From contig OZ242029.1 of the NCBI GenBank assembly GCA_965205015.1, positions 768,001 to 832,000 on the forward strand: 64,000 nucleotides of DNA, read 5' to 3'. Numbering within the stretch: position 1 is the first letter of the stretch; each line of letters opens with the position of its first letter. Of the stretch, positions 9,633 to 64,000 are shown piece after piece. Position numbers and translations under genes: made by a program. The DNA is from Candidatus Poribacteria bacterium (GTDB lineage: Bacteria > Poribacteria > WGA-4E > WGA-3G). The notes under the pieces were generated by a model. It saw only the letters and a list, made by a program, of their open reading frames with translations. It was not told the origin of the DNA and did no database searches.

Positions 9633-11930
9633 TTAGTGTCCATTGCTTCTCAACGCTTGGACAACCTTCTCCGGTTTGATCGGCAATTCGGTAACCCGCA
9701 CACCGATAGCATCTTTGACAGCGTTCGCCATCGTTGCCAATGTTGGCGTGATAGGCGGTTCACCCACACCTTTGGCACCGTAAGGACCGTTGGGGGCAGG
9801 CACTTCAACAATGACAGACTCGACCGTTGGGAGATCCGCCGAGGTTGGAACGCGGTAATCGACAAAGCCCGGATTGACGTTCCCGTTTTCGCCGTACTGC
9901 ATCTCCTCCATCATTGCCCAGGCATAACCTTGCACTGTACCACCTTCGATCTGCCCTTCAACTGCCATCGGGTTGATAGCATAGCCGACATCTTGCGAAG
10001 CGATCAGTTTGAGGACTCTCGTTCTACCTGTGCCTGGATCCACTTCGACTTTCGCAATCTGCGCTGCGAGTGCCGGTGTGCTGGGTTGTCGGGCAAAGGA
10101 CCCTTTTCCAACGATAGGACCACCGGTTGTAGACAGGCTGTAAGCTGCAAGTTCACCCAACGAAATGGATTTCGGCGGATCTGCGGAAATAACATGGACC
10201 CCTCCATCTTTGAGTTCGAGGTTGTCCACATTCATATTGAGACGCTCCGAGGCGAGCTCAAGAATCCGGCGGTGTGCATCTTCAGCCGCCAATTTTGCGG
10301 TGTTGCCCATCGTGAAGGTAACAACACTGCCACCTGAACCGGTAGAGTACGGGGCAGAATCCGTATCGCCACGTCGAATTGTGACGCTTTCATACGGCAC
10401 TGTCAGGATTTCGGCAATAATCTGCGAAATCGCGGTATCCGTTCCAGTGATGTCCATAGATCCATGGAAGATACGGGCACTCCCGTCTTCATGGACAGAA
10501 ACATAAACACCCCCCGGTCCACAACCGTTTGTCCAATCACCAACAGCGACACCCCATCCTTGGTTCTCACCCGCTTCCCGATCCCACCATCCGGCGGCAT
10601 CCGCAACGGCTTCCAAAGTCTCTTTGTAACCGACTTTGGGTTCCGCAGCACCTGCGGGGACGGGGTCCCCTTCTTCGCGCATGTTCATCAGGCGGAATTT
10701 AACCGGATCCATGCCGATACGTTCAGCAATTTCGTCGAGTTGGGATTCACCGGCGAAAATCGCTTGCGGGGCACCGGGTGCCCTATAAGCGGCAGTCCCA
10801 GATTTATTGGTGTGAACACCATAAGCGTCTACCTTGAGATTCGGAATTTTGTAGACACCGCGGACCCGAATCGTGCTGCCGATCGATGCGCCAGAGACGG
10901 AACCGGAATCCCAAAAAGCGAGCGCTTCCCGCGCAAGGATGTGCCCCTCGTTCGTAGCACCCGTCTTGATTTTAATAACACATCCGGGTGCCGGTCTACC
11001 ATCAATAAATTCCTCTTCACGCGTCATTTGAACCCGGACGGGACGTCCCGTTTTCTGCGAAAGCAGCACGGCAGGCACGTGCGTAATAATAACACCAAAA
11101 CGTCCACCAAAACCACCGCCCATTGTTGTGCCGATGACATTAATTTGCGTCAACGGAATCCCGAGCGTCCCAGCGATACCCGAACGGATAGCGAACGGAC
11201 CTTGCGTGGATGCCCAAACCGTGATTTTGCCGGAGGAGTCTGCGCTGGCGACAGAAACGTGCGGTTCCATGTAAGTCTGGTGGACCCGTGGAATCACATA
11301 GGTATCTTCAACAACGACATCAGATTCAGCAAATCCTTTTTCAACGTCTCCCGCATCGGAGTGGCTTTCGGCAGAGATGTTATAGTAAACTTCATCAGGG
11401 TATTCCTCTAAGGCTGCCTCAAGTTTGCTGATTTCGTCGCTGTGATCGTTCTCCTTATCACGAGAGAGTCTCCGGATCCGTGTGCTGATCTCCCGCCGAT
11501 TGGGACCATCCTTTGTTGCATCACCGTGCAAGCGTGGTGCTGACGGTTTAATCGCTTCCATAACATCTTGCACAACCGGCAGCACTTCGTATTCAATCTT
11601 AACGAGTTCAGCGGCTTCCTCGGCAATATCGGGATCGGTTGCCGCAACAGCAGCAAGCGGTTCGCCTAAGTAAAGCACTTTGTCCGTCGCAAAAACCCTT
11701 CTGCCGCTCGGCACATCGTCCTGCGTAATAATCGCCCTGACACCGGGAAGTTTTTCGGCTTCGCTGGTGTCAATGCTGAGTATATTGGCGTGGGCTTGTT
11801 TACTGCGGACGATTTTGCCATAAAGCATACCGGGTGGATGAACATCTGCCCCGTATTGCGCGGCACCGGTTACTTTTTCAACAGCATCAACGCGTGCAAC
11901 CTTTTGTCCGACGACAGTATATTCTGACAT
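9633..11930 (-). CDS. Xanthine dehydrogenase/CoxL-like molybdopterin-binding subunit
   Basis: YMEPH, MGGGFGGR, AYRAPG, GQIEGG and GAKGVGEP motifs. Confidence 0.92.
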   Translation of the reverse strand: MSEYTVVGQKVARVDAVEKVTGAAQYGADVHPPGMLYGKIVRSKQAHANILSIDTSEAEKLPGVRAIITQDDVPSGRRVFATDKVLYLGEPLAAVAATDPDIAEEAAELVKIEYEVLPVVQDVMEAIKPSAPRLHGDATKDGPNRREISTRIRRLSRDKENDHSDEISKLEAALEEYPDEVYYNISAESHSDAGDVEKGFAESDVVVEDTYVIPRVHQTYMEPHVSVASADSSGKITVWASTQGPFAIRSGIAGTLGIPLTQINVIGTTMGGGFGGRFGVIITHVPAVLLSQKTGRPVRVQMTREEEFIDGRPAPGCVIKIKTGATNEGHILAREALAFWDSGSVSGASIGSTIRVRGVYKIPNLKVDAYGVHTNKSGTAAYRAPGAPQAIFAGESQLDEIAERIGMDPVKFRLMNMREEGDPVPAGAAEPKVGYKETLEAVADAAGWWDREAGENQGWGVAVGDWTNGCGPGGVYVSVHEDGSARIFHGSMDITGTDTAISQIIAEILTVPYESVTIRRGDTDSAPYSTGSGGSVVTFTMGNTAKLAAEDAHRRILELASERLNMNVDNLELKDGGVHVISADPPKSISLGELAAYSLSTTGGPIVGKGSFARQPSTPALAAQIAKVEVDPGTGRTRVLKLIASQDVGYAINPMAVEGQIEGGTVQGYAWAMMEEMQYGENGNVNPGFVDYRVPTSADLPTVESVIVEVPAPNGPYGAKGVGEPPITPTLATMANAVKDAIGVRVTELPIKPEKVVQALRSNGH

Positions 11931-12053
11931 TTAATTCTCCTTTTTTTATGGCTGTCGGCTGTCAGCATTTGAAGGGAAGATTAGAAGGGTGGAAGAGTGG
12001 GTCCCCATCCTTCCCTTCTTCCAACCGTCCAGTCCCTTGCTGACCGCTGATAA

Positions 12054-12287
12054 CTATGATACGTTTGCAATGAGTTGCTGGAGTTTACCGCGTCCGATAG
12101 CAGTATTGCATCTTTTACAGACTTTCACGGTATCCTCTCCGACCTCTCGATCATAAAGGACTTTCACGCCGGTCCGTCCACAAGTCGGACAGGTTCCACG
12201 ACCATTATTATATTCGCCGTTGTGTACGTTCCCGTTTGGATCCACGTAAAGGTGCCTTATGCCTGTTCCACGATGAGTCTTTGCCAT
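12054..12287 (-). CDS. Small basic zinc-ribbon protein (CxxC...CxxC)
   Basis: 77 aa; CPTC and CKRC; AGGAG SD; co-oriented between the 2Fe-2S and Mo subunit genes. Confidence 0.75.
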   Translation of the reverse strand: MAKTHRGTGIRHLYVDPNGNVHNGEYNNGRGTCPTCGRTGVKVLYDREVGEDTVKVCKRCNTAIGRGKLQQLIANVS

Positions 12288-12412
12288 GTTTGCTCCTATT
12301 AATTGGGTTCCCAGTTTTCGGTTCTCGGTCTTCGGTTAGAGAGAGGCTTTTTGGCAGACAAGGCGTTTGTAACTGCTACACGTCTTAACCGACAACTGAC
12401 AACTGATAACTT

Positions 12413-44515: not shown

Positions 44516-46216
44516 CTACGTCTGCCCAAGAACCTTCAGAAACGCTTCATCGTCTTTTACATCCGAAAATTCAGGGGTCTCAAGGAAAGTCGGGTAGTAT
44601 GTATCCTGATTATAAGGATCTACCACATAGTACGCCTGAGCGGACTTTAAATGATGTAAAGTTTTTTCTCTGTCCTTTTCAGAAGCCCAGATGCTTGCAG
44701 CCAGCTGGAAGTGTCCATAATGGTTGTTATCTTCCAAATCAATGGCGATTTGTAGGAAACATCTCGCCTCGTTATACTTCTTAGACCACAACAGACAACA
44801 ACCGATATCGTGTGCTAACCACATAAGGTCGTCGAGATTTACAGGTTGACCCGCATCCCGTTTCTTCAACTCTCCTTCCATATAGGCACTCACTTCCGTA
44901 AAAATTCGATCGAAACGTCCCCAATCTCCTTGTTTACCGTATATGAGAAGTCGACTTTCTTTCGCAATCAACCAGAATTGAAAATAATGCTCTGAACCGG
45001 GTTCGTTGTTAGCACGTTCCAACTTTTCTATCTCAAGGAAGGCTTCATCGAACCGGTCGTTGCATCGTAATACATCTATTCCGGCCTGCAGGAATTCACA
45101 ACGCCTGAAGTAACTCACGCCTGGGTTCTCTAAGCGTTCAGAGGCGTCATTATATAGCTGAATCCAGTCATCAATACGACCTTCCGCCGCCCAACATCCG
45201 GATCCCCCCAGATTAGCACCAGCCTCCAACACATATTTATCCGGCAAGTGCTGGCACGTCCAACAGTAAAGCCGAGAGTGTTCCTCAATAGCTGCTCGAT
45301 TTCTTCCAAGAGAAGCGAGACTATCGACTAACCTGTCATGCGCCCAGAAACGCTCCGTATCACCCAGCGCGTCCTCCATATACCTACGGAGTAGAGGTAC
45401 CCGCTTTTCCATGCCGAGTTTGCCCATATACGGGTATATCTCATCGGCAGCAAGATGCACCAATTCAGGCGTGATTTCACCCTTAAGTGCGTCTTCAATC
45501 TCGTTACAGGCTTCTGTAAGAATACCCACTCTGGATGCAGGATCAGATTTCACTTTTTCCATGAATAAATTGAACTTACTGCGAACTTCTTCTAATTGTG
45601 TCATGACATTCTCCTTCAGATTATCTGATAGTTGTAGATGACCAAAAAATTCTGGATTCAAGAGTTCTTGCTCTGTTCGCAAACGCTTTCGCGCCCGTTG
45701 GAGTCGACTCGTAATTGTGTTCACCGACACCCCCATGAATTTGCCGATCTCTTTCGTTGACATTTCGTCCAGATAGAAGAGGGTTACAACTGTGCGTTCC
45801 TTCTCCGGCAGTTTTTCTAAAAGTCTTTTCACAAGTTCATGGTAATGCTCGGTTCTCTCTGTCATTCGCTGTTCTGATATATGATGCGTATAAGAGGACT
45901 GCTCGATTTCTTCTACAGGTGTATCCTCCAGGGATTGCATCATAGACTTTTGGCTTCGCATCCAATCAATGCAAAGCCGATTTGCGATAACATGGAGCCA
46001 CCCCGCAAATTGATCGGGATTCTTGAGCGTCGGAAGTTTTCTGTATGCCCTCAGGAAGGTATCTTGCATAATCTCTTCCGCATGGTGAAAATCTTGGATC
46101 TTCCGCCATGCCAGTGCATGAACGCTTTTTTGGTACTTTTCGACCAAGATGCTAAACGCAGCGTCGTCCCCAGATAAAATTTTGCGAATCAATTGAACAT
46201 CGTCTTCTCTTTCCAC
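44516..46216 (-). CDS. ECF sigma factor with a C-terminal ~360-aa helical TPR-like domain (paralog 1)
   Basis: sigma2 (AEEIMQDTFLRAY...F.GWL..IA) and sigma4 (LPEKERTVVTLFY...EIG...TITSRLQRARKRL) followed by a helical repeat-like extension. Confidence 0.88.
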   Translation of the reverse strand: MEREDDVQLIRKILSGDDAAFSILVEKYQKSVHALAWRKIQDFHHAEEIMQDTFLRAYRKLPTLKNPDQFAGWLHVIANRLCIDWMRSQKSMMQSLEDTPVEEIEQSSYTHHISEQRMTERTEHYHELVKRLLEKLPEKERTVVTLFYLDEMSTKEIGKFMGVSVNTITSRLQRARKRLRTEQELLNPEFFGHLQLSDNLKENVMTQLEEVRSKFNLFMEKVKSDPASRVGILTEACNEIEDALKGEITPELVHLAADEIYPYMGKLGMEKRVPLLRRYMEDALGDTERFWAHDRLVDSLASLGRNRAAIEEHSRLYCWTCQHLPDKYVLEAGANLGGSGCWAAEGRIDDWIQLYNDASERLENPGVSYFRRCEFLQAGIDVLRCNDRFDEAFLEIEKLERANNEPGSEHYFQFWLIAKESRLLIYGKQGDWGRFDRIFTEVSAYMEGELKKRDAGQPVNLDDLMWLAHDIGCCLLWSKKYNEARCFLQIAIDLEDNNHYGHFQLAASIWASEKDREKTLHHLKSAQAYYVVDPYNQDTYYPTFLETPEFSDVKDDEAFLKVLGQT

Positions 46217-49614: not shown

Positions 49615-51333
49615 CTACTTCTGCCCGAGAACCTTCAGAAACTCTGGGTCATCCTTTACATCCGAAAATTCCGGAGTTTTAAGGAAAGACGGGTAGTAGC
49701 TATCCATATAATTGTAGGAACTAACTATATAATCGCTCTGAGCGATCTTCAAATGGTGTAAAGTCTTCTCTCGGTTTTTCTCAGATGCCCAGACGCTCAC
49801 AGCAAGCATGAAGTGATTATAATCGTTGTAATTTCCCAAATCGATGGCGAGTTGTAGCAAACGTTTCGCTTCATCATACCTCTTCGCCCATACCAGACAA
49901 CAACCGATATTATGAGCAGTACAAACAAGCTCATAGATATTTACGGGATAACCGGCACTCCGTTTTTCGACTTCTCCTTCAATAAACGTCCTTGTATCCA
50001 TCAAGACTCGATCGAAACGATCCCAATCTCCCTGTTTGCTATACACCCGAAGTCGATTCTCTCTTATCGCCAACCAGAATCGAAAATAACTCCGCCAACC
50101 CGGTTCGCCATTGGCACGTTCCAACTTTTCTATCTCAAGAAGTGCCGCATCTAACCTATCGTTCCTTATTAAGATATCTGATCCAAATTGCAGAAAATCG
50201 CAACGACTGTACTGACTCACTTCAGGGTTCTCTAAGCGTTCAGATGCCTCATTGTAAAGTTGAATCCAGTCATCAATACGGCCTTCCGCCGCCCAACATC
50301 CAGCAGTGTTCGGATTAGAAACAATCCGCAACACATATTTTTCTGAGTGCTTGCATGCCCAACGGTAAAGACGCGTCTGTTCCTCAATAGCTTCTTGATT
50401 TCTCCGAAGAAAAGCGAGGCTTTTGACTAACCTGTCATGTGCCCAGGAACGCTCCGTATCATCTGGAGTGTCATCCATATACTTCCGGAGTAGAGGGAGC
50501 CGTTTTTCCATGCCGAGACTGCCCATATACGGGTATATCTTATCAACCACAAGACGCACCAATTCAGGCGTAATTTCACCCTTAAGTGCATCTTCAATCT
50601 CGTTGGCGGCTTCCTTAAGAATATCCTCCCTTGATGCAGGGTCAGATTTCACTTTTTCCATGAATGCATCGAATTTGCTGCGAAGTTGCTCTAATTGATT
50701 CATAATATTCTCCTCCAGATTATCTGATAACGGTAAATGACCAAAGAATTCTTGATCCAAGAGTTCCGGATCTGTTTGTAAACGTTTTCGCGCCCGGTGG
50801 AGCCGACTCGCAATTGTGTTTACCGGCACGCCCAAAAATTTGCCGATCTCTTTCGTCGGCATTTCGTCAAGATAGTAGAGTGTTACGACCGTGCGTTCAT
50901 TTTCTGGCAGTTTTTCTAAAAGCTGTTGGACAAGATCACGGCAATACTCTGTTCTCTCCGTCATCCGCTGTTCTGACATGTGGTGTGTATAAGAGGATTC
51001 CTCAATTTCTTCCAAACGTGTGCCTTCCAAAGATTGCATCGCAGGCTTGTGCTTCTGTATCCTCTTTTGCTTTCGCATCCAATCAATGCAAAGCCGATTG
51101 GCGATGACATAGAGCCACCCAGCAAATTGATCGGGATTTTTAAGCGTCGAGAGTTTTTTGTATGCCTGAAGGAAGACTTCTTGCATAATATCCTCAGCGT
51201 AGTGATAATCGCCGATCTTCCGCCATACAAGGGTATGAACGCTCTTTCGGTACCTTTCGACCAAGATGCCAAACGCAGCGTCGTCCCCGGATAAAATTTT
51301 GCGAATCAGTTGAACATCGCTTTCTTTTTCCAC
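49615..51333 (-). CDS. ECF sigma factor with a C-terminal TPR-like domain (paralog 2)
   Basis: Collinear paralog of 44516..46216; GTG start MEKESDVQL after GGAGG SD. Confidence 0.88.
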   Translation of the reverse strand: MEKESDVQLIRKILSGDDAAFGILVERYRKSVHTLVWRKIGDYHYAEDIMQEVFLQAYKKLSTLKNPDQFAGWLYVIANRLCIDWMRKQKRIQKHKPAMQSLEGTRLEEIEESSYTHHMSEQRMTERTEYCRDLVQQLLEKLPENERTVVTLYYLDEMPTKEIGKFLGVPVNTIASRLHRARKRLQTDPELLDQEFFGHLPLSDNLEENIMNQLEQLRSKFDAFMEKVKSDPASREDILKEAANEIEDALKGEITPELVRLVVDKIYPYMGSLGMEKRLPLLRKYMDDTPDDTERSWAHDRLVKSLAFLRRNQEAIEEQTRLYRWACKHSEKYVLRIVSNPNTAGCWAAEGRIDDWIQLYNEASERLENPEVSQYSRCDFLQFGSDILIRNDRLDAALLEIEKLERANGEPGWRSYFRFWLAIRENRLRVYSKQGDWDRFDRVLMDTRTFIEGEVEKRSAGYPVNIYELVCTAHNIGCCLVWAKRYDEAKRLLQLAIDLGNYNDYNHFMLAVSVWASEKNREKTLHHLKIAQSDYIVSSYNYMDSYYPSFLKTPEFSDVKDDPEFLKVLGQK

Positions 51334-51451
51334 GAAATTTCCTCCGAATAAATAGATTGGACCCTGTATACCCTCGCCAAAGCGTTTAATCAAATACCAA
51401 GTTTTATGCAATTAAGCAATATGAGGTAGTTTACACCTTCTATATATTAAA

Positions 51452-51596: not shown

Positions 51597-51938
51597 CTAA
51601 GCCGACAATCCAGCAACAGCAGCGTCCTCACTGTCAAAATGTTCAAACAGATTAACCACACGACTCAGAACAATGAGATTTCTGATATGTTTTCCGACAT
51701 TGATGACACCCACGCGTCCCTGTTTTCGCGACGCAGCAGCGTATGCCTCCATCAAGGTGCCAAGACCTGAACTATCGATCCGATTGACCTGCTCGAAATT
51801 GATGAGGATACGTGGGGTATCAGAAGCCTCTATTTGTGGCAAGATAACTTTCCGTAAGTCTGATACGGAGCGTCCGCCCACCTTTCCAGTGGGTTTCAAA
51901 ATCGAGATACCATTTTGCTGGCGAATTTGCGTTGTCAT
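51597..51938 (-). CDS. STAS domain anti-sigma factor antagonist
   Basis: ILINFEQVNRIDSSGLGTL with the conserved phospho-Ser motif DSSG. Confidence 0.92.
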   Translation of the reverse strand: MTTQIRQQNGISILKPTGKVGGRSVSDLRKVILPQIEASDTPRILINFEQVNRIDSSGLGTLMEAYAAASRKQGRVGVINVGKHIRNLIVLSRVVNLFEHFDSEDAAVAGLSA

Positions 51939-53197: not shown

Positions 53198-55270
53198 CTA
53201 AAATGCGCGGATCACCTTAGCAACGAAACGCTGTTTGAACTCCGAGGCGTTTGGATCACCCAGAATAACAAAAAAGTCAGTACCGGCATAACCTGAACGG
53301 CGCAGGGCAAAGTAGATATTAATTCCCTCGACTTGCCAGATGAGGCGACTCCCGAGGCTTAAAGCGGGACTGAAATCGTATGTGAGAGTTAGAATCTGTT
53401 GGTAACGTCTCTCAAAATGCCACTGGATTTGTGAGGAGAGTCCTGCGGTGAAACCGTAGGCGCGGAGATTCAGATTTCCACTGATGCGATGAATTGTCTC
53501 GCCTGCCTGTTCACCCCAATTGTAGGTAATCCCAACATTATTGAACCTGTCAGAAGCACGCGCGCGTAATCCAACGCTGAAAACACTGTCGCTGAATTCT
53601 TCAAATTGCCCGCCCCTCCAGCCAGCAGCAAGGGCATAGTCACTATGCGATCGGATAAGTGAAGATATGGACAAACCACGCCGAAAGACTTCACCTTCGT
53701 AAGTATTAGAGACCTCGCTTTGGATAGAAGCGGATGCGCTGCGGAAGAATCCTTCACGCCACTCGTTACGGAAATAACTCCCTAAACTTAGACCGCGATA
53801 CCCCGTAAACGGATGGTACCCAAGTCTATTGACGAAATCCGAATCGACAAAAAATACGGAAAAGTACGGTTGAACGACTCGGCCTTGATAGATTAAATTG
53901 GCATATCCATCCCTTCCAGTTGACTCGCCTGCCCAACTTTGGGTGATGACAGATCTGGCTAAAAACTTGCCACGTCTGACATCGCCTGATAAGTAACCAA
54001 CATTGTTCGCTTCGGTGTCACGGTGGTGATGCGAAAGGAGTGCCGCGCTGATATTCGATGTTGCCGTGAGTGATTGAGAGGCTTGAAGAATAACGTTCTG
54101 GTTGTTCCGGTGATAGGTACCTAAGGTGCCGACTGAGGTGTTTTTCCCGATTTTCCCAAAGAGTTTAAGCCCGCCATCCATATCCACTATCCGTCGTGAA
54201 TGGAACAGGCGACCGAGGCGATAAACATTACCGCCTTCCGAGAAGAAAGGTCTCCGATCGGGCACATAGCGTTCACCGTAGGAGAAGTCGATACCTTCGA
54301 CTGCCTGCTCAATGTTCTCGAAATCAGGGTTTGCTGTGCCGATGAGTCGCAGTTGCGGTGTAACCTCATAGCGGAGATCTGCTCCCGCGCGAGCCGTATA
54401 TTCTCTTTCCGTCTCGGAGGTTGCCCCTACAGTAGTTTCTGCTTCGCTGATGCCACCAATCAGATAGGGTAACACCTTAAGTTCACGTTTGCGAGGCGGG
54501 GGCAGCACATCAATCCAGTGTCCATCGTTTTCCCGAAATTCTTGAACGCCTAAGTTGCACCACCAAGAACGTTCTCCAGTGCGTTGTTGTAGCCTGTCAA
54601 TGTTAATGCCCATCCGAACGGGTTCGGTTGTATCGGGATAATCGAGCATCTGCCACGGGATTTCCATTTCCACAATCCATCCGTCTTCCACAATCTGTGC
54701 AGCGGTTTTCCATAGCCCAATCCACTCACTTTTCTCGGCGCGTCCCGTAGCGAGATGTGCGTATTTGGTGCCGAGTGGATTTACAATGAAGAAATTTCTG
54801 TCTGAAAACTGATGCGTATGAAACGGATCAAGACTGAAGGAGACCCAGTCCTCGCCGCGGATCCGCGTTTGGTCTTTGGTTTGGCGTGCCACAATTTTGT
54901 CGGGCATATCATCGTAGAGATGAAGTCCAACATAAATGGCTGTGTCGGTATAAACGAGGCGACCGATGGATTGGTCCTTTGCGGGTTTTTCAGTCCGTTC
55001 GTCGGTGAAACCGATGGCTTGCGGTGCCTCTTGCCAGCAGGCATCGTCGAGAACACCATCAAGAGTGGGTGGCTGATCTGTTTTGACAGCAGGGAGTTCT
55101 TTCTGAACGGTCTGTATGTTTGCAGCTGCCGAAGTCTGTAAACTTGTGATTAAGGTAAAGGATAGCGCGATGAGCAATACCATCGCGTAATTTTTCCGTT
55201 CTACCTGTTTGTTTGTGCCATACCCGTGCGCTGCACGAGTCTTTGCCGTTGTAAACTTCGGCGTTTGCAT
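53198..55270 (-). CDS. CBM9-like / DUF5916 domain protein (probable outer-membrane carbohydrate-binding protein)
   Basis: PTLDGVLDDACW, GW.VEMEIPW, NPDF..IE and D.RPFFSEG...LFHSRRI motifs; C-terminal Phe. Confidence 0.8.
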   Translation of the reverse strand: MQTPKFTTAKTRAAHGYGTNKQVERKNYAMVLLIALSFTLITSLQTSAAANIQTVQKELPAVKTDQPPTLDGVLDDACWQEAPQAIGFTDERTEKPAKDQSIGRLVYTDTAIYVGLHLYDDMPDKIVARQTKDQTRIRGEDWVSFSLDPFHTHQFSDRNFFIVNPLGTKYAHLATGRAEKSEWIGLWKTAAQIVEDGWIVEMEIPWQMLDYPDTTEPVRMGINIDRLQQRTGERSWWCNLGVQEFRENDGHWIDVLPPPRKRELKVLPYLIGGISEAETTVGATSETEREYTARAGADLRYEVTPQLRLIGTANPDFENIEQAVEGIDFSYGERYVPDRRPFFSEGGNVYRLGRLFHSRRIVDMDGGLKLFGKIGKNTSVGTLGTYHRNNQNVILQASQSLTATSNISAALLSHHHRDTEANNVGYLSGDVRRGKFLARSVITQSWAGESTGRDGYANLIYQGRVVQPYFSVFFVDSDFVNRLGYHPFTGYRGLSLGSYFRNEWREGFFRSASASIQSEVSNTYEGEVFRRGLSISSLIRSHSDYALAAGWRGGQFEEFSDSVFSVGLRARASDRFNNVGITYNWGEQAGETIHRISGNLNLRAYGFTAGLSSQIQWHFERRYQQILTLTYDFSPALSLGSRLIWQVEGINIYFALRRSGYAGTDFFVILGDPNASEFKQRFVAKVIRAF

Positions 55271-55454: not shown

Positions 55455-57665
55455 TCATGGCGATTCTGACAAATGCTCATCAAACCAAGAAAGCATCCGT
55501 TGCCAATAATCAGCCACATTCGGATAACGCCATGATGTGACTTGCGAATGTCCCTCACCTTCATAACGCGCTAAAACGGCCTTTTTTCCCAGTCTACGCA
55601 AGCCAGAGAACATTTCTCCTGCCTGTGGGACAGCAGGGACACCATCCAAGGCACCAACAACTAACAACAGCGGCGTCTCCACCTTGTCCAGAAAAAAGAT
55701 AGGGGAGTTTTCGATGTATCGGTCCTGGAACTCCCAGAGCGACCCACCCATTTTGCCCTGTCCTTTTTCTGCCCAATCGATCCACTGGCTATCTCCCTCT
55801 TCCGTCAAATGCCCATAGAAACTAATGAGATTCCCCACCGGCGCACTACTGACAGCTGCACTAAACCTTGATGTTTGTGTAATCAGAGCGTTGACGCAGT
55901 AACCTCCGTAACTGTGCCCCATTATTCCTAAACGGTTGGGATCGGCAATTCCCATATCAATTAGCGTATCTATACCAGAGAGCACCATCTCCGTCAACTC
56001 TCGGACCGGCGCGTTGGTTTCCATTGGGGTATCGGGAAGAAAGACGACGTAATCTTGCTTCGTCAGCAGAAAATTGCCCCCATAGCGATCTGTGCCGAAA
56101 TCGTTAAATTGATACGAGAGCAAAGAACCCCCGTAGACCTCCGTAATTAATGGATAGTGTTTGCCCTCTACATAGTCTGGTGGGAGCAGCAAGGCACCTC
56201 TAAGGTCTTTTCCAGAAGGTGTCTGCCAAGTGACGAGTTGAGAAGTCCCAAGTCGTTCTGTTTCAATATCTGGGTTCAGTCGAGTGAGTTGCTGTGGATT
56301 TTGAAAGTCGGTGTCCGCTACCCACACATCGGGCGCGTGATTTACGTCCTCAATGCTGTAGAAAATATCCCCCGTTTGAGGTGCAACATCCATGTTTCTA
56401 CCCATAGGATTATAATTACGCTTTTCCTGAACCAACCGTGTGATCTCGCGCGTTTTCAGATTGACGCGATGAAAACCGTGCTGTTCACTGTTTGAATGGA
56501 CGGTATGCATGTATATTGACTCGGTGCAGTCTGGCGACCAAACAGTGTCTGCTTCCGCTTGCCGAACAATTCGAACAACACGTCCATCAAATCCGTCTGT
56601 CAATTTTTCAATAGCGCGATCAGCGATCGTAATTCGCCAGAGATCCCCCCGGGCAACACAGAATAGGTGTTTACTATCAGAACTCCACAAAGGCGGATGC
56701 GAACTATTTGTTAGTTCAATATCGGTGTCTTGGGTGAGATTTAGTTGGCTACCGTCAACTGTCGAAATGAGGAAAAGCTCATCTTTTGCAGCCTTATTCT
56801 CTGTCGGAAACGCAACGTAGCGACCATCTGGCGACCAAGTAAACAAACGTCCCCATCCAGATTTCAGCGAGTCAGCAAGTAATTTCGGAGGTCCTCCATT
56901 TAGCGACGAAAGATAGAGTTCGTACAGTAGTTGAGCGTTACTTTCTAACCCTTGAAAACTCGTAAACGCCGCGGTCGCTCCATCAGGGGCAACACGGATA
57001 CCAGATGGATAGAGTCCCTGCGCTAACGTTTCGACTTCTCCTGTATCAACCCTTATCATCCCAAGGTCTGCGCGATATCGCGCGTCAAACCACGAAGTCC
57101 GCCGCGGTCGGAATTCATTTTCCGGTTGTCCAGCAATAGGACTCGCAAAGAGTGTTACCGATGCCTTTTCCTTGTCTGGAGGTGCTTCTTCATCTGTCTC
57201 CGCTTCTGAATGCAACCTAACGATAATACGTGTTCCATCAGGTGTCCAGAGCGGTGGCTGCGCCCTTGACAAAAACGGCTGAATCCTGACATCACTCGCG
57301 AGTCGTGGGACATCTTCGCCGACCTCCCATATCCACAATTGGGCTGTTTTATGCTTATCCGAATAAAAAGCCAATCTTTTTCCATCCGGAGACCAGGCAG
57401 GTCTATAACTTGTGCCCCAATTCGGCGTGAGATTTCGCGATTCGCCACTCTGAACATCGATGAGCCAAATTTCACTTCCTTCTTGCAAGCCAGCGATACC
57501 CGTTGGAAGATATGTTTTATCTCCGGCTCCTACGCGTTTTCTGAAATAACTTTGAACAGCAACAGCAAGTTGTGTTCCATCTGGTGAAACAGCAATTGGA
57601 TCAAATAGCGTGAGGAGTTCTATCGAGAGAATGTCCTCAATACCGCTAAAAAGGTCAGTGTGCAT
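55455..57665 (-). CDS. S9 family (prolyl oligopeptidase-like) peptidase with beta-propeller
   Basis: WSPDG repeats; GIMGHSYGGY; LLVVGALD; EGHS; AGGAGG SD before MHTDL. Confidence 0.92.
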   Translation of the reverse strand: MHTDLFSGIEDILSIELLTLFDPIAVSPDGTQLAVAVQSYFRKRVGAGDKTYLPTGIAGLQEGSEIWLIDVQSGESRNLTPNWGTSYRPAWSPDGKRLAFYSDKHKTAQLWIWEVGEDVPRLASDVRIQPFLSRAQPPLWTPDGTRIIVRLHSEAETDEEAPPDKEKASVTLFASPIAGQPENEFRPRRTSWFDARYRADLGMIRVDTGEVETLAQGLYPSGIRVAPDGATAAFTSFQGLESNAQLLYELYLSSLNGGPPKLLADSLKSGWGRLFTWSPDGRYVAFPTENKAAKDELFLISTVDGSQLNLTQDTDIELTNSSHPPLWSSDSKHLFCVARGDLWRITIADRAIEKLTDGFDGRVVRIVRQAEADTVWSPDCTESIYMHTVHSNSEQHGFHRVNLKTREITRLVQEKRNYNPMGRNMDVAPQTGDIFYSIEDVNHAPDVWVADTDFQNPQQLTRLNPDIETERLGTSQLVTWQTPSGKDLRGALLLPPDYVEGKHYPLITEVYGGSLLSYQFNDFGTDRYGGNFLLTKQDYVVFLPDTPMETNAPVRELTEMVLSGIDTLIDMGIADPNRLGIMGHSYGGYCVNALITQTSRFSAAVSSAPVGNLISFYGHLTEEGDSQWIDWAEKGQGKMGGSLWEFQDRYIENSPIFFLDKVETPLLLVVGALDGVPAVPQAGEMFSGLRRLGKKAVLARYEGEGHSQVTSWRYPNVADYWQRMLSWFDEHLSESP

Positions 57666-57675: not shown

Positions 57676-58935
57676 CTATCTTGGGTCATCACACGCTTGA
57701 CTTTGTTTGCTGCCATCACCGATGCGGTTAGAACGAAATCCCGAGATGCTTCTTTCAACACTTCGGCGCAGCATCTCATCGCTGAGATGGAACGCCTCGC
57801 GTATTGTTATTGACAGTTTCTGCTGCTGCTCTATCGAATCGAGCAATTGCTGGTTTTGCACGACAACGACAGAATCAGCATTCTCTTGAATTTCCTGTAG
57901 CGAACGTTTCGCTTGTTCGGCGCGACGTTGACCCTCAAAGTTGAATGGACAGGTCACAACCCCTACAGCCAAAGCACCTTGCTCTCGGGCGAGAGAGGCG
58001 ATCAGAGGCGAAGCACCCGCTCCTGTTCCGCCCCCCATACCGGCGATAACGAAGACAATATCCGCGTCCGCAACGATGGCGTTGAGCGTTTCCCTGTCCT
58101 CCTCAGCCGCTTTTCTACCTATCTCTGGGTTCGCGCCACATCCAAGTCCTTGGGTAGTCTTAGCACCGATCTGCACCGGTGTTGCTTCAGGGTGCTTGTC
58201 AAGTGCTTGCTGGTCTGTATTCACGGCATAAAATTCAATGTCTGTCAAACCGTCTTCAATCATTCGTTTAACGGCGTTCCCGCCCGCGCTACCGACTCCA
58301 ATAACCTTGATTATAGTTTCGGTGCGTTTGGATTCTTCTCGTTTGGATGACATAGTTCTCCCTCTTTCAGGTTCGACACCGAACTCCCTGCGTAAGAGTT
58401 CACGTGTCTGTCTTAATTTGGTCTTGATTGTGCCTATCGCCAATCCGAGTTCAGTGTGGATCTCCTTGACGCTCCACAATTCCAGATAGTATAGGACCGC
58501 AACGCGGCGCACTTTATCTGGAAGGTGATGCACTGCTTCCCTTATAGCGTCGTAGTGTTCCGTTTCCCTGAAGCGTGCGACTGCATCTTGGTCGATACGA
58601 TCCGTCAGATCCGCATAACTATAAGGAATGTCGTTTCCGGAACGATCGGCAGCAGCATAGTACCGCTTGCAAGCGTTGTAAGCAATGCGATGCAGCCACC
58701 CCCCAAAACTCTCAACGCTCCGCAGTCCACTGATATTTTCCCAGACGGCTCTCCAGACATCCATGAGAATTTCTTCGGCATCGCGGGGTTGTCTCGAATG
58801 TGCGATAATCACTTTCCAGATGCGTCGACTATAACGCGACATCAGTTCTGCAAACGCTAATTCATCACCGGCTTGTGTAAGCCCAATGAGTTCTTCATCT
58901 GTTAGAATGGCGTGCGTTGATAGATCGTATCGCAT
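57676..58935 (-). CDS. ECF sigma factor fused to an FtsZ N-terminal GTPase domain
   Basis: sigma2/sigma4 (DAEEILMDVW...F.GWL.RIA; LPDKVRRVAVLYY...TIKTKLRQTR), then IKVIGVGSAGGNAV, NTDQQAL, TQGLGCGANPEIGRKAAEE, AGMGGGTGAG and PFNFEG. Confidence 0.9.
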   Translation of the reverse strand: MRYDLSTHAILTDEELIGLTQAGDELAFAELMSRYSRRIWKVIIAHSRQPRDAEEILMDVWRAVWENISGLRSVESFGGWLHRIAYNACKRYYAAADRSGNDIPYSYADLTDRIDQDAVARFRETEHYDAIREAVHHLPDKVRRVAVLYYLELWSVKEIHTELGLAIGTIKTKLRQTRELLRREFGVEPERGRTMSSKREESKRTETIIKVIGVGSAGGNAVKRMIEDGLTDIEFYAVNTDQQALDKHPEATPVQIGAKTTQGLGCGANPEIGRKAAEEDRETLNAIVADADIVFVIAGMGGGTGAGASPLIASLAREQGALAVGVVTCPFNFEGQRRAEQAKRSLQEIQENADSVVVVQNQQLLDSIEQQQKLSITIREAFHLSDEMLRRSVERSISGFRSNRIGDGSKQSQACDDPR

Positions 58936-59037
58936 AAACAGTTCCCAATTGATTTTAACCTAAAGAGTGGACTTTTTCGGAAGGTGGTTTAAAAAAAGAA
59001 AAATCGCTGTACTTTTCGCTACGCCTCTCACAGGGAC

Positions 59038-60489
59038 CTATACCTCCGAACGCAGGAAGACGAGGAAGGCTCCTGAAAGCGACACACCGAGCAGTAAAAT
59101 GAGTAACAGAATATCGACTATAGCGGGATTGAGCGTCTCCTGAAAAGACAACTTATCCTCAAACATTGGGATAGTCTCTGGTAAGACGGACCTTTCCGAC
59201 ATGCCTTTCCGGACACCCACGAAATGAAGGCTCTCTGGATCCGCCCGATCCATTTCAACGATGAAATTTCGGAAGTGTCGGATATGAAGGCGGCAGTGTT
59301 CTAAGAATTGCAAATGCCGATTAAAGCCTGTGCCTGCCATGGATTCAAGGGCATATTGGACAACCGCTGCAGGAGAGCATCGGGTTATCTGTCTTGCATG
59401 CAGGACTTGCGCACTTTGCGCAGCGAGATGCTGGCGACTCAGCCGCTCCCGAATCTCCATGTCTTTGTTAACGAACGCCTGTTGGATCTCCAATTCTGAA
59501 GTGTCTACCCCCGCAACTTCCTCCTGAGAGGTTTCTGCGGATTGACGGCGTTCTCTTAAAGTCTCCCTTTTATCCAGGAAATCGCTCCGAATTTGGTCGA
59601 AGGCGGTCCCCTTTGTCCTCTGAAATTGATGGTGCGTTTGAATCGGAGGCATCCATCTTGTGGAGAGTGTGCCGAGGGTTGACGGCATAAACACCACGAC
59701 AGTCACCCAGATGAGCAACAGGACAACCAGACTTAACCGACTTTCCCGAGTCATCGCCGAGATAATAAGCCCAATTGCGACGAAGATACCAGCATAGCAA
59801 GAAGCAATCAGCACGATCAGTCCTAAACGCCCCCAGTCTGCGCCGCTGAGCTGCGTCCAACTCTCGGTAGAAATGATGGCGAGATTGAATAACACGGCAC
59901 AATAGAAGGCAATGAGGACCGTGATGAGGGAGCCAAGGAACTTACCCATTAATAGAGTCGGGCGCGAAATCGAATTGGCAAGACACAGCCGCAGCGTCCC
60001 GCGTTCTCGTTCTCCGGAGAGCGCGTCAAAGGTAAACAGGAGCGGCATGAAAGAGAGCAGATAGGTCACAATAAAGACCCAATCGATCCCCGTGGCAGTG
60101 GGACGAAGATTGCTAATCGCCTCCATATTCAGACGTGGAACGCCCATCGACCAAATATAGGCAAGCCCGTATAACCGCCAGAAACCACCACTCACGCTTT
60201 CGTCCGGTAGTAAGGCGTCCCCGCCATCGGCGATGAAGGCGAGCGATGCGGGGCGTTTGTAAAGCTTACCGGGTCCCTTGTGTAGCAGTTCATACAACTG
60301 CGTTCGGGATTTCAATTCGGTCTGAGATGCGTTAACCTTCTCGGAATACTTTCGAACCCGTTCCGGATGGGTTCGAAGATGCACAACGGCATTGGTTACC
60401 ATTAATGCTACGAGGATGAACGTGGTTAAGGCAAAGCGGAGACTCGTGAGGTGGTCTAAAAGTTCGCGTCTGACAACATGCCAAATCAT
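59038..60489 (-). CDS. ABC-2 type permease (type B)
   Basis: FDALSGERERGTLRLCLAN motif; paralog of 46530..47936. Confidence 0.88.
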   Translation of the reverse strand: MIWHVVRRELLDHLTSLRFALTTFILVALMVTNAVVHLRTHPERVRKYSEKVNASQTELKSRTQLYELLHKGPGKLYKRPASLAFIADGGDALLPDESVSGGFWRLYGLAYIWSMGVPRLNMEAISNLRPTATGIDWVFIVTYLLSFMPLLFTFDALSGERERGTLRLCLANSISRPTLLMGKFLGSLITVLIAFYCAVLFNLAIISTESWTQLSGADWGRLGLIVLIASCYAGIFVAIGLIISAMTRESRLSLVVLLLIWVTVVVFMPSTLGTLSTRWMPPIQTHHQFQRTKGTAFDQIRSDFLDKRETLRERRQSAETSQEEVAGVDTSELEIQQAFVNKDMEIRERLSRQHLAAQSAQVLHARQITRCSPAAVVQYALESMAGTGFNRHLQFLEHCRLHIRHFRNFIVEMDRADPESLHFVGVRKGMSERSVLPETIPMFEDKLSFQETLNPAIVDILLLILLLGVSLSGAFLVFLRSEV

Positions 60490-60638: not shown

Positions 60639-62201
60639 CTACACTTCAACTTTGATAAAAATCAAAAATGTCGCCATGAACAGGACGATATTGGTGCATA
60701 ACAGCAAAAACAGTTCAGGTAGGGCGCGATGCGCGTTGATGCCGATTTCTGCTCGCTCGAAGTGAAAACGAGGGAGGACCGACCAGTCTATATCCGCTTG
60801 ATTTGGAGCAAACCACTGCAGGCTCGCGAACGCATCTCTCTCATGAAAGGTCCCAATGAGGGTGCGGCGGTACGCCTGCGCGGTTTGAATATAATCCACC
60901 ATGCTGTTTAAATCGGTGCCTGCCCATGCGGCGGTAGCAAACGTATAAAGGCTTGCCGGACTGAACTTCATGAGACGCTCATCCCATTGTGCTTGATGGA
61001 GGGTGGTCTGTGCTACCAACTGCTGGCCGACGAAACCGACTTCGTCGGCATTCCGGATGTGCAGGGAGGCGGCGAATGCATAATAACGGCGTAAGTGTGG
61101 CACTAAAGGGTGCGCTGTATCTTTCAGTTCAAGGTTAACCCGAGGGAAGTCCCCAAGGAAGAAATATCCTGCTCCACTAAAGAGACCTGAAAACGCTTCA
61201 GAATCTGAAAATATCGGAGACTCCCCCTTAAGCGGACTATTGGCTAAGAACCGGTGTCGTTCTCTATCCGCCGCTTCCCGAATCTGCGCTATCTGCTGCT
61301 CGGTGGATCTTTTTTTTCCACGCATGTCCGCGTCTGGATTCAAGGCAAAGCGGCTCCAATTTGGATAGACGAGCACTAAAATCACCCATAAGAACATACA
61401 GAGCATCAAGGAGGTAGCGGCACGACGGGCTATCGCGGAAACGAGCAGACCGATCAGATAGAAAACCGACAGATAGACGATTGTCATTAAAACAATGCCG
61501 CCAATTCGTAGAAAATCACTTCCACTGAATTGCAAGGAACGCGCGAAGGAACACTGAATCAGGGCAAGCAATAGACTCATCAACACGGGGAGTAGCAGGC
61601 AAACCATCGCCGCAATATATTTAGCAAACAGCACATTTCCTCGCCCGACGGGATGTGAGAGCACCAAACGCAAGGTCCCTGTCTCCCAATCTCCCGCAAT
61701 CGCGTCATAAGCGAAAAGCAGAGCGATCAGACTCAACACAACCTGAAAGATAAAGACCAGGTCTATCTGTGAAAAGAGATACAGATAGGGGTTATTTATC
61801 CCGAGCGGTGCCCCTGGACTTGAGAGGGACGGGACGCTGCCAGACACCCACTGTTCTTCCTCGGGTCTGACATCAACGATGGGATTTGAGAGGGCTGGCA
61901 CACTGTCAAACGCTATATCAAGCTCACTGCCAAAACGCGTTTCCAAGCCCGCGCTAAAGAGGCTCAGGGGGTTCGGAGGACGCTGAACCTTTAACTTTAA
62001 GACCGAATAGGTGGGGGTTGCCTCGACCTTCTCGCGATTTACCGCTTCTTTCTGACTATAGTCGGCGAGACGCTCTTCATGTGCACCGATTAAGACGAAC
62101 GTATTGGCAACGACAAGTAAGAGTGTAATGACCACCGCAGCAAAAAAACGCGCACTCATCAGATGAATCAAGAGTTCCTGGCGTATCAGGGTCCGTAACA
62201 T
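60639..62201 (-). CDS. ABC-2 type permease (type A)
   Basis: RPPNPLSLF and AYDAIAGDWETGTLRLVL motifs; start MLRTLIRQE by analogy with 48066..49577. Confidence 0.88.
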   Translation of the reverse strand: MLRTLIRQELLIHLMSARFFAAVVITLLLVVANTFVLIGAHEERLADYSQKEAVNREKVEATPTYSVLKLKVQRPPNPLSLFSAGLETRFGSELDIAFDSVPALSNPIVDVRPEEEQWVSGSVPSLSSPGAPLGINNPYLYLFSQIDLVFIFQVVLSLIALLFAYDAIAGDWETGTLRLVLSHPVGRGNVLFAKYIAAMVCLLLPVLMSLLLALIQCSFARSLQFSGSDFLRIGGIVLMTIVYLSVFYLIGLLVSAIARRAATSLMLCMFLWVILVLVYPNWSRFALNPDADMRGKKRSTEQQIAQIREAADRERHRFLANSPLKGESPIFSDSEAFSGLFSGAGYFFLGDFPRVNLELKDTAHPLVPHLRRYYAFAASLHIRNADEVGFVGQQLVAQTTLHQAQWDERLMKFSPASLYTFATAAWAGTDLNSMVDYIQTAQAYRRTLIGTFHERDAFASLQWFAPNQADIDWSVLPRFHFERAEIGINAHRALPELFLLLCTNIVLFMATFLIFIKVEV

Positions 62202-62266
62202 CGTTTTCCGTTGCCTCAATTCCACGGGTTCTACTACCGAATTAGATATTTTCCAGGGATAGGTGA

Positions 62267-64000
62267 TTAGGACTTCAAGAGCATCGGCATGATGAGGTGG
62301 ATATGTCCTTCCTCACCAACCGGCTTAACAATCACAGGATCCAACGCGCTCGAGAACTCCAATGCCAAAGACGCCGTTCCAATGTGCGTGAGCGCCTCTA
62401 TCAGCATCCGAGCATCGAGACCGACACGGATACTTCCAGTGCTGGACACCACTGCTAAGGTTTCCTGCTGCTCATCTATCTCAGAATCCCTCGGCGAAAT
62501 CCGAATCCGTTGTTCATCTATCTCTAAACAGACCGTCGGCGAAATCCGAATCTGTTGTTCATCTATCTCTAAACAGAGAGCAGGGCATTTCGGATCCGAA
62601 AATGCTGAAACCTGACGTGTTGCACGCAAAATCGGCGCTTTCTGCACAACTGTACGCATCTGAGGAGACTTTGGAAAGAGTTTCTCATACTTCGGATATT
62701 CACCGTCTACCAACTGCGCCGTCAACGTGGTTCGCTCATCCGCGAAAAGAATCTGGTTCGCAACGCGTGAAACCCGTACCTCCAAGGAATCAGCAAACGT
62801 TCGTTCAATATCTTTGACGGCTTTGAGCGGGACGATAAACCCATCGTTATCCTCAGACAACCTTAAGGGTTCACACCGTGCGATGGCAATCTGCTTGCCG
62901 TCGCATCCAACGACTTCGGTCCTGTCCTCAAGCAGGTTAAAATAGAGCCCGTTTAGAAAAGTCCGCCGGACTTTCTCCGTGGACGCAGCACATTCGGTTT
63001 TGTGGAGGATCGACCGCAGGATCTCTCCATCAATCGCAAATGCTCCCGGGTCAACAGAAGGGAGTTGTGGAAATTCCTCATCCGCAAGCCCGACGATTTT
63101 GTAAACGTCATCTCCAGAAGTGATTCTAACCCGACCGTCCGCTGTCTTTGTCACGTCTATCGGTTTCTCCGCGGGCCACGCTTTAACGATATCCCCTAAT
63201 TTTTGGGCGGGGACAGTGATCGCTCCCGCTTCTTTGACTGTCCCTTCAACCTTCATTCTGATGCCAATTTCCGTGTCCATCGCCATGCATTCAATCGTGC
63301 TTCCTTCCGCACGGATGAGAACGTTTGAGGGAATAGGTGAGGTATCCTGCCCACTCGTGACACGCTGCAGCATTTGTAAAGAAGTTAAAAGCGCATCCCT
63401 TTCAAAAGTTAATTTCATTCCAAAACCCCTATTCAAATATATTTGGGCGCGACGTTCGGGTTCAATTGTGAGGTCTAAGGCTTCCTGAATCATGAATTCA
63501 TACTGCTTTAACTGTTGTCGCGCACGTCGAAGCCGACTTTTAATCGTGTTTTCTGACACACCTAAAAAGTTACTTATTTCTGTGTAGGTCATCCCCTCAA
63601 GGTAGTGAAGCGTGATAGTTGTCCGATTGCTCTCCTTCAACCTCGCGAGCAGCTTTTCGACCACGTCGCGCCGCGCTTCAGCGAAGGTCCTCGCGTGTTC
63701 TGTCGCGATATACTGGGAATACGCCTCTGTCTCTACTTCAGAGATGTCAGTGTTTTCCAGCGGCTCAGTGTGCCGCTGGTTTTTTCGGAGCCAAGCGATA
63801 CAGAGACGATCCGCAATCACATAAACCCACCGTAGAAACCGCGTCGGATCTTCCAAGGTCTCTAATTTGTGATAGACTCGCAGGAAGGTTTCCTGCGTAA
63901 TATCTTCGGCGATATGGAAATCCCCAATTTTCCGCCATGCGAGCGCGTGAACCTGTTTCTGGTACTTTCTAACCAACCTTGAAAAGGCAGTTTCATCACC
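62267..64000 (-). CDS. ECF sigma factor fused to a full-length DNA polymerase III beta sliding clamp (DnaN-like); 5' end lies outside the window
   Basis: Frame open to the window edge (GDETAFSRLVRKY); sigma2/sigma4, then MKLTFERDALL...P.IPSNVLI...D.EIGI...ITVPAQKL...EEFP...FLNG...GEYPKY...LIMPM. Confidence 0.9.
   Translation of the reverse strand, partial: GDETAFSRLVRKYQKQVHALAWRKIGDFHIAEDITQETFLRVYHKLETLEDPTRFLRWVYVIADRLCIAWLRKNQRHTEPLENTDISEVETEAYSQYIATEHARTFAEARRDVVEKLLARLKESNRTTITLHYLEGMTYTEISNFLGVSENTIKSRLRRARQQLKQYEFMIQEALDLTIEPERRAQIYLNRGFGMKLTFERDALLTSLQMLQRVTSGQDTSPIPSNVLIRAEGSTIECMAMDTEIGIRMKVEGTVKEAGAITVPAQKLGDIVKAWPAEKPIDVTKTADGRVRITSGDDVYKIVGLADEEFPQLPSVDPGAFAIDGEILRSILHKTECAASTEKVRRTFLNGLYFNLLEDRTEVVGCDGKQIAIARCEPLRLSEDNDGFIVPLKAVKDIERTFADSLEVRVSRVANQILFADERTTLTAQLVDGEYPKYEKLFPKSPQMRTVVQKAPILRATRQVSAFSDPKCPALCLEIDEQQIRISPTVCLEIDEQRIRISPRDSEIDEQQETLAVVSSTGSIRVGLDARMLIEALTHIGTASLALEFSSALDPVIVKPVGEEGHIHLIMPMLLKS
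62491..62577. repeat. 45-bp tandem duplication inside the DnaN-like domain
   Basis: 62491-62532 and 62536-62577 differ at one base; encodes CLEIDEQ(Q/R)IRISP twice. Confidence 0.9.

Follow-up and report, generated by a model that had tools for sequence, protein, structure and literature searches.

Extracytoplasmic function (ECF) sigma factors with a fused C-terminal extension are the closest described systems to the gene reported here. In ECF41 (SnoaL-like), ECF42 (TPR) and ECF57 (WD40-like), the two sigma regions sigma2 and sigma4 are likewise followed by a large domain, and such extended factors are usually reported without anti-sigma factors (PMC7826278). WD40 itself is a known type of ECF extension, reported for ECF57 (PMC8999054). 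Here, we analysed a 64,000-nucleotide stretch of DNA from Candidatus Poribacteria (contig OZ242029.1, positions 768,001 to 832,000; the window) and describe a gene in which an ECF sigma factor is continued by the N-terminal half of FtsZ. This sigma-FtsZ protein differs from the known extended ECFs in that its extension is a predicted nucleotide-binding FtsZ half; the WD40-like repeats of ECF57 are not found in it, but paralogs with 52-66% identical sigma cores do have WD40. With canonical FtsZ the extension shares the N-terminal GTPase fold, the loops T1-T6 and helix H7, but it lacks the T7 synergy loop, the C-terminal domain (C-domain), the linker and the C-terminal peptide, and it stands behind a sigma factor. 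That an ECF can carry a fused regulatory domain is already known; the FtsZ-half sensor is new as far as we could find. No description of an ECF extension derived from FtsZ, FtsZ-DnaE or DnaN was found in the literature on ECF/FtsZ fusions or Poribacteria, the words FtsZ and tubulin are absent from the main text (supplementary tables aside) of three ECF surveys, and the public annotation of relatives reads only 'sigma-70 family RNA polymerase sigma factor'. The parts of the gene are as follows.

57676..58935, reverse strand: sigma-FtsZ fusion gene, an open frame of 419 amino acids with its TAG stop at 57678-57676 (open reading frame and translation).
58642..58845, reverse strand: sigma region 2, residues 31-98 (PF04542, 37.4 bits; AlphaFold2 helices).
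58396..58551, reverse strand: sigma region 4, residues 129-180 (PF08281, 32 bits; PF04545 as well).
58315..58386, reverse strand: junction and linker, residues 184-207, with the motif EFGVEPxRGxxMSS and an in-frame ATG at 58353-58351 (M195).
57742..58314, reverse strand: FtsZ N-terminal GTPase domain, residues 208-398, spanning strand S1 up to where helix H7 ends.
57676..57741, reverse strand: non-conserved C-terminal tail and stop, residues 399-419 (orthologs end earlier; low model confidence).

Both sigma regions score above the curated Pfam cut-offs that mark an ECF (group 4) sigma-70 factor (24 for Sigma70_r2, 25.7 for Sigma70_r4_2), and the protein passes the NCBIfam model sigma70-ECF TIGR02937 with 71 bits at a cut-off of 42.9. 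No further sigma-70 region (1.1 or 3) appeared at E <= 0.1 in a Pfam search of the fusion protein. Sigma2 and sigma4 are separated by about 30 residues, with low values of the predicted local distance difference test (pLDDT) at 96-123, and the sigma4 motif LP..R....LYY...W...EI...LG...GT.K..L is kept across the aligned orthologs. The approximately 230 residues after sigma4 form a folded domain according to Pfam and to an AlphaFold2 model of the protein built with 51 relatives as input, and constitute a large C-terminal extension. Overall, the model reached a mean pLDDT of 73.9 and a predicted template-modelling score of 0.50, with about 90 for the FtsZ half and mostly about 70-89 for the sigma helices, those of region 2 reaching about 80-89.

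Within the extension, residues 209-368 match the Pfam Tubulin/FtsZ GTPase domain PF00091 at 153.5 bits (cut-off 33) along profile positions 2-189 of 190. The NCBIfam ftsZ model TIGR00065, by contrast with the ECF model, was failed (239.7 at a cut-off of 295.2) and matched only at model positions 7-200 of 353, and the Pfam FtsZ C-terminal domain PF12327 gave no match in the fusion protein of the window. A phmmer search against the PDB paired residues 208-394 with Staphylococcus aureus FtsZ from strand S1 to H7 (E = 1e-53); the FtsZ half is about 50% identical to this protein and 60-64% identical to the N-terminal domain (N-domain) of canonical Poribacteria FtsZ. The loops T1-T6, which bind guanosine triphosphate (GTP), are retained in the window copy. 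An earlier reading of the DNA letters without database searches (the sequence-only reading) had quoted a set of motifs, all of which we recovered: GSAGGNAV at 216-222, NTD at 239-241, GGGTGAG at 301-307 (a variant of GGGTG(T/S)G), PFNFEG at 330-335 and AFHLSDEMLRRSV at 381-393. Indeed, Pfam, NCBIfam, the phmmer search against the PDB and a wide conservation establish the fusion between an ECF sigma factor and an FtsZ GTPase domain, which that reading had proposed, as real.

The FtsZ half stops at a defined point. In an alignment with canonical and long-paralog FtsZ the domain ends with H7, without T7 loop, C-domain or tail, as had been stated from the letters alone, and the protein terminates where the T7 loop (GEINVDFADV in canonical Poribacteria FtsZ) would start. 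Orthologs share this single end point, ..SISEFHSST plus 2-5 residues, in 48 complete loci. A truncation point common to all of these loci is not what random decay produces, and the survey of homologs suggested with the sequence-only reading therefore speaks against a pseudogene with randomly placed ends, as does the purifying selection described below. In the lineage of the window copy, loss of the intergenic spacer before the next gene, as seen in a DNA alignment of the 3' ends, has left the protein with a longer, unrelated tail; this tail is lineage-specific (pLDDT < 50 for residues 402-419), and orthologs stop 10-14 codons sooner. When canonical T7 loop and C-domain were used as tblastn query (E <= 10), no remnant was found in the window. 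The short-form loci gave a single chance-level match (L007, E = 2.7, 36 amino acids), another weak match (L066, E = 9.1) lies within a sigma-WD40 paralog locus, and real matches were obtained only to canonical and long-form genes. A frameshifted C-domain downstream was rejected on the result of this search. A split FtsZ, whose C-domain would be encoded by a gene of its own, was rejected as well, since PF12327 matches canonical and long genes only in four of four genomes.

Is the fusion a common feature of these bacteria? A word-index protein search gave at least 120 clusters among the matches listed, and wherever the source gives a name these are Candidatus Poribacteria. The 120 listed clusters are 75-94% identical and 382-419 amino acids long; all contain the Tubulin and sigma-2 domains, and 117 also contain PF08281. 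A collection of species-representative genomes yielded 103 stretches that encode a relative, of which 79 loci were kept; among these, the form described here (the short form) is complete in 48 and cut by a contig end in one more. Several relatives sit on chromosome records of multi-megabase length, an argument against chimeras produced by assembly. A search of 175 genomes of the phylum, with counts that are lower bounds among the matches listed, found the short form in at least 71 (open frames of about 398-464 amino acids, 65-91% identity) and some sigma-FtsZ fusion, judged by best E-value, in at least 97; of the other genomes, 64 had a match at the level of canonical FtsZ or none, and 14 were intermediate. 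The ratio of nonsynonymous to synonymous substitution rates (dN/dS; pairwise Nei-Gojobori, about 1000 non-independent pairs) was 0.14 for the sigma part (residues 10-186) and 0.16 for the FtsZ part, and on these sequence comparisons both halves appear to be under purifying selection. In four studies, RNA libraries yielded contigs that cover relatives with about 90% identity, and one contig of 1448 nucleotides spans both halves.

Next to the short form there is a long paralog, which consists of the sigma factor, the FtsZ N-domain, the FtsZ C-domain and DnaE (PHP, polymerase core, fingers and HHH in Pfam). It is 46-62% identical with open frames of about 1350-1440 amino acids (one of 1744); some copies are shortened to 554-700 amino acids and keep a stump of the DnaE start, and most copies end after the HHH domain. 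Examples, 1357-1743 amino acids in length, are located as follows.

L051, L052 and L053, 8001-12.3k: long sigma-FtsZ-DnaE paralog.
L092, 5105-9178, reverse strand: long sigma-FtsZ-DnaE paralog.
L093, 3056-8287: long sigma-FtsZ-DnaE paralog.
L095, 7047-11330: long sigma-FtsZ-DnaE paralog.

Many genomes of the phylum have the long form beside or instead of the short form. A T7-like loop and the FtsZ C-domain are present in it and the FtsZ tail peptide is absent; most of its T3 loop is altered, and four of nine sequences have Asn or Gly in place of the T7 Asp. The long gene occupies a conserved location in four genomes and looks monocistronic behind the promoter motif common to the family. All four genomes searched retain their housekeeping copies: two dnaN genes, a canonical dnaE and a canonical ftsZ that encodes the C-terminal peptide. 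We built a tree of the N-domain by a quick maximum-likelihood search. Canonical Poribacteria FtsZ, the short and the long form fall into one clade (Shimodaira-Hasegawa-like approximate likelihood ratio test 99), within which the short (99) and the long (81) forms are sisters (83). This single clade argues that the fused FtsZ is derived from the phylum's own ftsZ and that the short form is a truncated descendant, reached, as far as the sequences indicate, via the sigma-FtsZ-DnaE paralog. The sigma clade to which they belong, with cores that are 52-66% identical, carries alternative extensions as well: WD40 propellers, DnaN domains 2-3 (a cluster of five members), a PHP domain or short tails. 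Given the sigma-FtsZ-DnaE, sigma-DnaN and sigma-WD40 siblings and their common promoter motif, a decisive context absent from the sequence-only reading, the FtsZ half would be one of several swappable input domains.

The two parts of the protein are joined by a flexible linker of about 20 amino acids (pLDDT < 50 at residues 188-205). The junction motif EF(G/D)VEPxxGxxM(S/T)S is kept together with its Met in short, long, WD40 and sigma-only paralogs (L001-L079). In the window a purine-rich GAGGGAG precedes the in-frame ATG of M195, and all 31 short and long genes inspected keep an in-frame ATG that has purine-rich sequence 5-10 nucleotides upstream of it. Synonymous divergence amounts to 0.43 at the junction versus 0.92-0.97 in the flanks. 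The motif might serve for cleavage, as an internal start, or as a joint at which recombination swaps the extensions. A fossil ribosome-binding site and start of ftsZ was considered for the linker and rejected, since the presence of the motif in WD40 and sigma-only paralogs assigns it to the sigma clade and not to ftsZ.

Which features of FtsZ has the short form kept? Positions with a conservation of 88% or more among 49 canonical FtsZ sequences were scored in 50 short forms. G213, G215, G218, N220, G299, G302, G305, G307, P330, F331, E334, N361 and D386 are invariant in all 50. The invariant pocket residues, which contact guanine, ribose and phosphates, comprise G/G/G/N of T1, the glycines of T4, P-F-x-x-E of T5, N of T6 and D of H7. 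With these contacts unchanged, nucleotide binding is very likely, and to this degree the earlier suggestion that the domain could bind GTP is borne out by residue conservation in the pocket. The window copy, which has kept almost all top-face residues of canonical FtsZ, is also canonical at N239, T240, D241, Q243, G265, G267, P270 and R338. The second part of that suggestion, that the domain could not polymerise on its own, holds: without T7 loop and C-domain it has no catalytic face to donate, and self-polymerisation is therefore not expected (PMC8936486).

The geometry of FtsZ assembly, as reported, gives this half a particular place. On the nucleotide-bearing subunit, filament contacts are made by the H6-H7 loop, T5, T3 and H1/H2, and the exchanges D46A and R143Q abolish assembly (PMC8936486). 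Incoming subunits are argued to join with their GTP-bearing top face the growing end, which exposes T7, and this top-face addition accounts for the toxic capping by bottom-face mutants (PMC8936486, PMC9897490). An FtsZ half with a top face only would thus have the geometry of a capper. For a complex of the FtsZ half with a canonical FtsZ core (from genome G001) and GTP, structure prediction gave a score of 0.26 (mark 0.32) in a run without controls.

Upstream of the gene we found a candidate promoter.

58961..58991, reverse strand: promoter-like motif TAAACC-N18-CTCTTTA, about 30 nucleotides 5' of the start codon (candidate ECF-type -35/-10).

An alignment of 18 ortholog upstream regions shares TTTTTTTAAACC-N18-CTCTTTA. 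The motif TAAACC-N18-CTCTTTA has a single match in the 64-kilobase window, where 0.02 would be expected by chance, and its paralog-wide form is TAAACC-N18-CTCT(T/A)TA. Upstream of the start, 47 of 49 short genes, five of five long genes and 20 of 24 other paralogs have a pattern of TAAAC(C/T)-N16-18-CTC(T/C/A)(T/A); among 77 control stretches, none has it. The strict pattern gives three matches in genome G001, each 5' of a sigma-fusion gene, and none for the control. From these upstream sequences we infer an ECF-type promoter that would be read by these sigma factors at their own genes, i.e. autoregulation.

Two neighbours of the sigma-FtsZ gene bear on how it might work.

55455..57665, reverse strand: S9 peptidase with a PD40 propeller (Pfam), its ATG at 57665 lying 10 nucleotides after the fusion stop behind AGGAGG.
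62267-64000, running past the window end, reverse strand: sigma-DnaN fusion with a complete three-domain DnaN; its ECF core is 25% identical and of a different clade.

The S9 peptidase and sigma-FtsZ genes are probably co-transcribed in the window. An obligate partner or linker protease was nevertheless rejected as a role for the peptidase, which lies within 600 nucleotides downstream in just 10 of 48 ortholog loci. Pfam detected no anti-sigma domain in the flanking genes (ABC-2 permeases, S9 peptidase, DUF5916/CBM9), where a novel type would escape Pfam, and flanks of this kind fit the published rule for extended ECFs (PMC7826278). The sigma-DnaN gene, 3 kilobases upstream of the sigma-FtsZ gene in the window, is followed by two ABC-2 permease genes (60639-62225 and 59038-60489), and in about 20 of 48 related loci an ortholog of it stands upstream of sigma-FtsZ at a distance of 3-6 kilobases. 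All three other sigma genes in the window, sigma-DnaN included, are followed by ABC-type permease genes.

Very probably the protein is a true sigma factor whose input domain derives from FtsZ. As to its mode of action, we tentatively propose a Poribacteria-specific, self-driven one-component ECF sigma factor, whose input may be the GTP-loaded FtsZ half with its ability to accept, and not to donate, the T7 contact. The sigma core would drive its own promoter TAAACC-N18-CTCTTTA, and its availability for RNA polymerase would be set by the state of the FtsZ half. When GTP-loaded, this half would accept the T7 face of a full FtsZ, either at a growing filament end or in the long paralog. The contact would not be passed on, and the sigma factor would be parked on FtsZ ends and cap them. 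It would be freed once FtsZ has disassembled or the domain is bound to guanosine diphosphate (GDP), so that transcription would report on division or on the nucleotide state. That the actual input is docking on FtsZ, and not just nucleotide, is a possibility that we likewise put forward with reserve. The module would resemble FtsZ bottom-face mutants, MciZ and MipZ in the predicted capping only (PMC8936486, PMC9897490). MciZ, MipZ and SulA are proteins unrelated to FtsZ, whereas the sigma-FtsZ module is itself an FtsZ half.

Several observations weigh against this proposal. Residues required for assembly or hydrolysis that are invariant in the 49 canonical FtsZ sequences are altered in 10-36% of the short-form members: in T2, N is kept in 90%, T in 76%, D in 86% and Q in 64%, in T3 the glycines in 74% and 84% and P in 86%, and the Sa-R143 equivalent in 84%. 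The T4 Thr is replaced by Ala or Gly in 70% of short forms, and the H6-H7 loop (interface region A, a longitudinal contact) carries 0, 2 or 4 extra residues. These partly relaxed interface residues suggest that the contact is selected less strongly than in true FtsZ, and they temper the capping or Z-ring sensing suggested by the sequence-only reading. In the AlphaFold2 model the placement of the FtsZ half relative to the sigma core is undefined, without confident docking, which leaves an intramolecular switch unsupported as well. With a relaxed pattern, the promoter motif was no commoner than its reversed control, and hence no regulon is seen beyond the sigma-fusion genes. Furthermore, the RNA-library contigs may reflect DNA carry-over, and the organism is uncultured.

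A nucleotide-only switch is the main rival. In such a pure nucleotide sensor the GTP, GDP or empty state would shift the extension against sigma2/sigma4, and FtsZ would never be touched. The contrast between pocket contacts invariant in 50 of 50 short forms and between-subunit features (T2, T3, the Sa-R143 equivalent, the H6-H7 length) relaxed in 10-36% is what such a sensor would predict, and the rewritten T3 of the long paralog, together with the loss of the T7 Asp in four of its nine sequences, likewise describes a module drifting away from polymer chemistry with its pocket kept. However, the T3 loop, which senses the gamma-phosphate and would discriminate GTP from GDP, is itself among the relaxed parts. 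FtsZ binds nucleotide tightly compared with cellular levels, which makes occupancy alone a poor signal; the AlphaFold2 model shows no confident contact between extension and sigma core, and the sibling extensions WD40 and DnaN bind proteins, not small molecules. We regard a pure nucleotide sensor as unlikely.

FtsZ, DnaN and DnaE are also classic inhibitor targets, and the FtsZ copy could act as an integrated bait: a phage protein, an interbacterial toxin or a natural product directed at FtsZ that binds or modifies it would free the sigma factor, which would then turn on protective genes, with the neighbouring ABC-type exporters or the peptidase as candidates. Fused domains in two sigma clades are indeed extra copies of FtsZ, DnaN and DnaE/PHP beside housekeeping copies that are kept, and in closer relatives the gene follows sigma-DnaN and two ABC-2 permeases (about 20 of 48 loci). 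The promoter motif, however, precedes sigma-fusion genes only and not the ABC genes, no known defence or resistance gene was identified alongside (PADLOC was not run), and a copy with 60-64% identity and differing loops tracks the surface of canonical FtsZ poorly. The argument proceeds throughout by analogy, and we consider a bait improbable.

Could the protein be a division inhibitor in the first place? The main product would then be a filament capper, be it the whole fusion or a separate FtsZ half translated from the internal ATG, and the sigma factor would serve only to make expression self-limiting or to tether the product to RNA polymerase and the nucleoid. A top face without its counterpart matches the geometry of toxic bottom-face FtsZ mutants (PMC8936486). 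The internal ATG with its purine stretch in 31 short and long genes, the low synonymous change there and an apparently monocistronic long paralog with the common promoter motif would suit this view too. The junction motif and its Met are found in WD40 paralogs as well, though, and are therefore not specific to a free FtsZ half; the sigma core is selected as strongly as the FtsZ half, and part of the family shows relaxed interface residues. Inhibition as the primary function is decidedly improbable. A decaying remnant or an assembly artefact, with a broken ftsZ in frame behind a sigma gene, is scarcely credible: the odd tail of about 20 amino acids and the deleted downstream spacer of the window copy, and the shortened long paralogs (554-700 amino acids) with a DnaE-start stump, stand against one truncation point in 48 complete loci of different species, a dN/dS of 0.16, multi-megabase chromosome records, the absence of a downstream C-domain remnant and RNA-library contigs across the junction, and an ortholog identity spread of 52-91% rules out a single clonal contaminant.

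The sigma-FtsZ fusion hints at a direct, hitherto undescribed wire from division or nucleotide state to gene expression. If docking on FtsZ ends is true, it would rank as the first FtsZ with only a top face to be found in nature, as an internal reporter of Z-ring dynamics and as a new coupling of division and expression; if the nucleotide-only reading is true, it would represent a new class of GTP-responsive sigma factor. The DnaN and FtsZ-DnaE siblings suggest a general strategy within one uncultured phylum and offer cell biologists testable protein pairs; the parts of the fusion, from the sponge symbiont Candidatus Poribacteria, are small and soluble-looking. More broadly, and with considerable doubt, we speculate that the sigma family uses spare cell-cycle machines (an FtsZ half, FtsZ plus DnaE, a DnaN clamp) as inputs. 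By like-with-like assembly each sigma factor would be loaded onto the divisome or replisome or released from it, or else each would be a bait for attackers of these machines; in both cases transcription would follow division and replication without second messenger or anti-sigma factor. A physical coupling between a sigma factor and the replication ring has a precedent in phage T4, in whose late transcription the sigma-like gp55 and gp33 are tethered to the gp45 sliding clamp. The precedent bears on the sigma-DnaN sibling and on the idea that such fusions link transcription with cell-cycle machines; the T4 link is a short clamp-binding peptide and not a covalent fusion to a subunit of the machine, and it does not involve FtsZ.

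Further genes of the window are worth recording. At 53198-55270 (reverse strand) lies a secreted-looking protein of 690 amino acids with weak CBM9 and DUF5916 matches. No other gene accompanies sigma-FtsZ as constantly as that of this DUF5916/CBM9 protein: in 43 of 48 loci it lies a few kilobases away at most, up- or downstream and on the same strand, and it may be a target gene. Two ECF sigma genes at 49615-51411 and 44516-46216 (both reverse strand) have C-terminal extensions of about 380 amino acids, for which no Pfam family was found; the TPR-like leads from Atlas reach just 0.81-0.83, below the level at which they are meaningful. Behind the first of these genes come two ABC-2 permeases; behind the second come a MacB/FtsX-type permease and two ABC ATPases whose N-terminal parts are long. 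A small STAS-domain protein (a fold of the anti-anti-sigma type) is encoded at 51597-51938 (reverse strand) between the sigma-fusion modules.

Other arrangements of the same parts were seen outside the window. The locus L094 (genome G004) carries two short sigma-FtsZ copies, at 6968-8287 and 11116-12327 (reverse strand), on either side of an S9 peptidase gene, and its gene order, circularly permuted with respect to the window, suggests recombination between copies. P0145 is a protein of 456 amino acids with a sigma factor and an FtsZ half (36% identical) that diverges from the FtsZ sequence at the T7 position, and its FtsZ part groups in the tree with a different canonical FtsZ; as one protein on a single 2-kilobase contig it was set aside as an independent origin. 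Among further unusual FtsZ architectures in the representative library (P0166, P0126, P0129, P0139 and P0142) are a DnaN and FtsZ fusion of 706 amino acids and several proteins of 731-840 amino acids with two complete FtsZ copies in a row.

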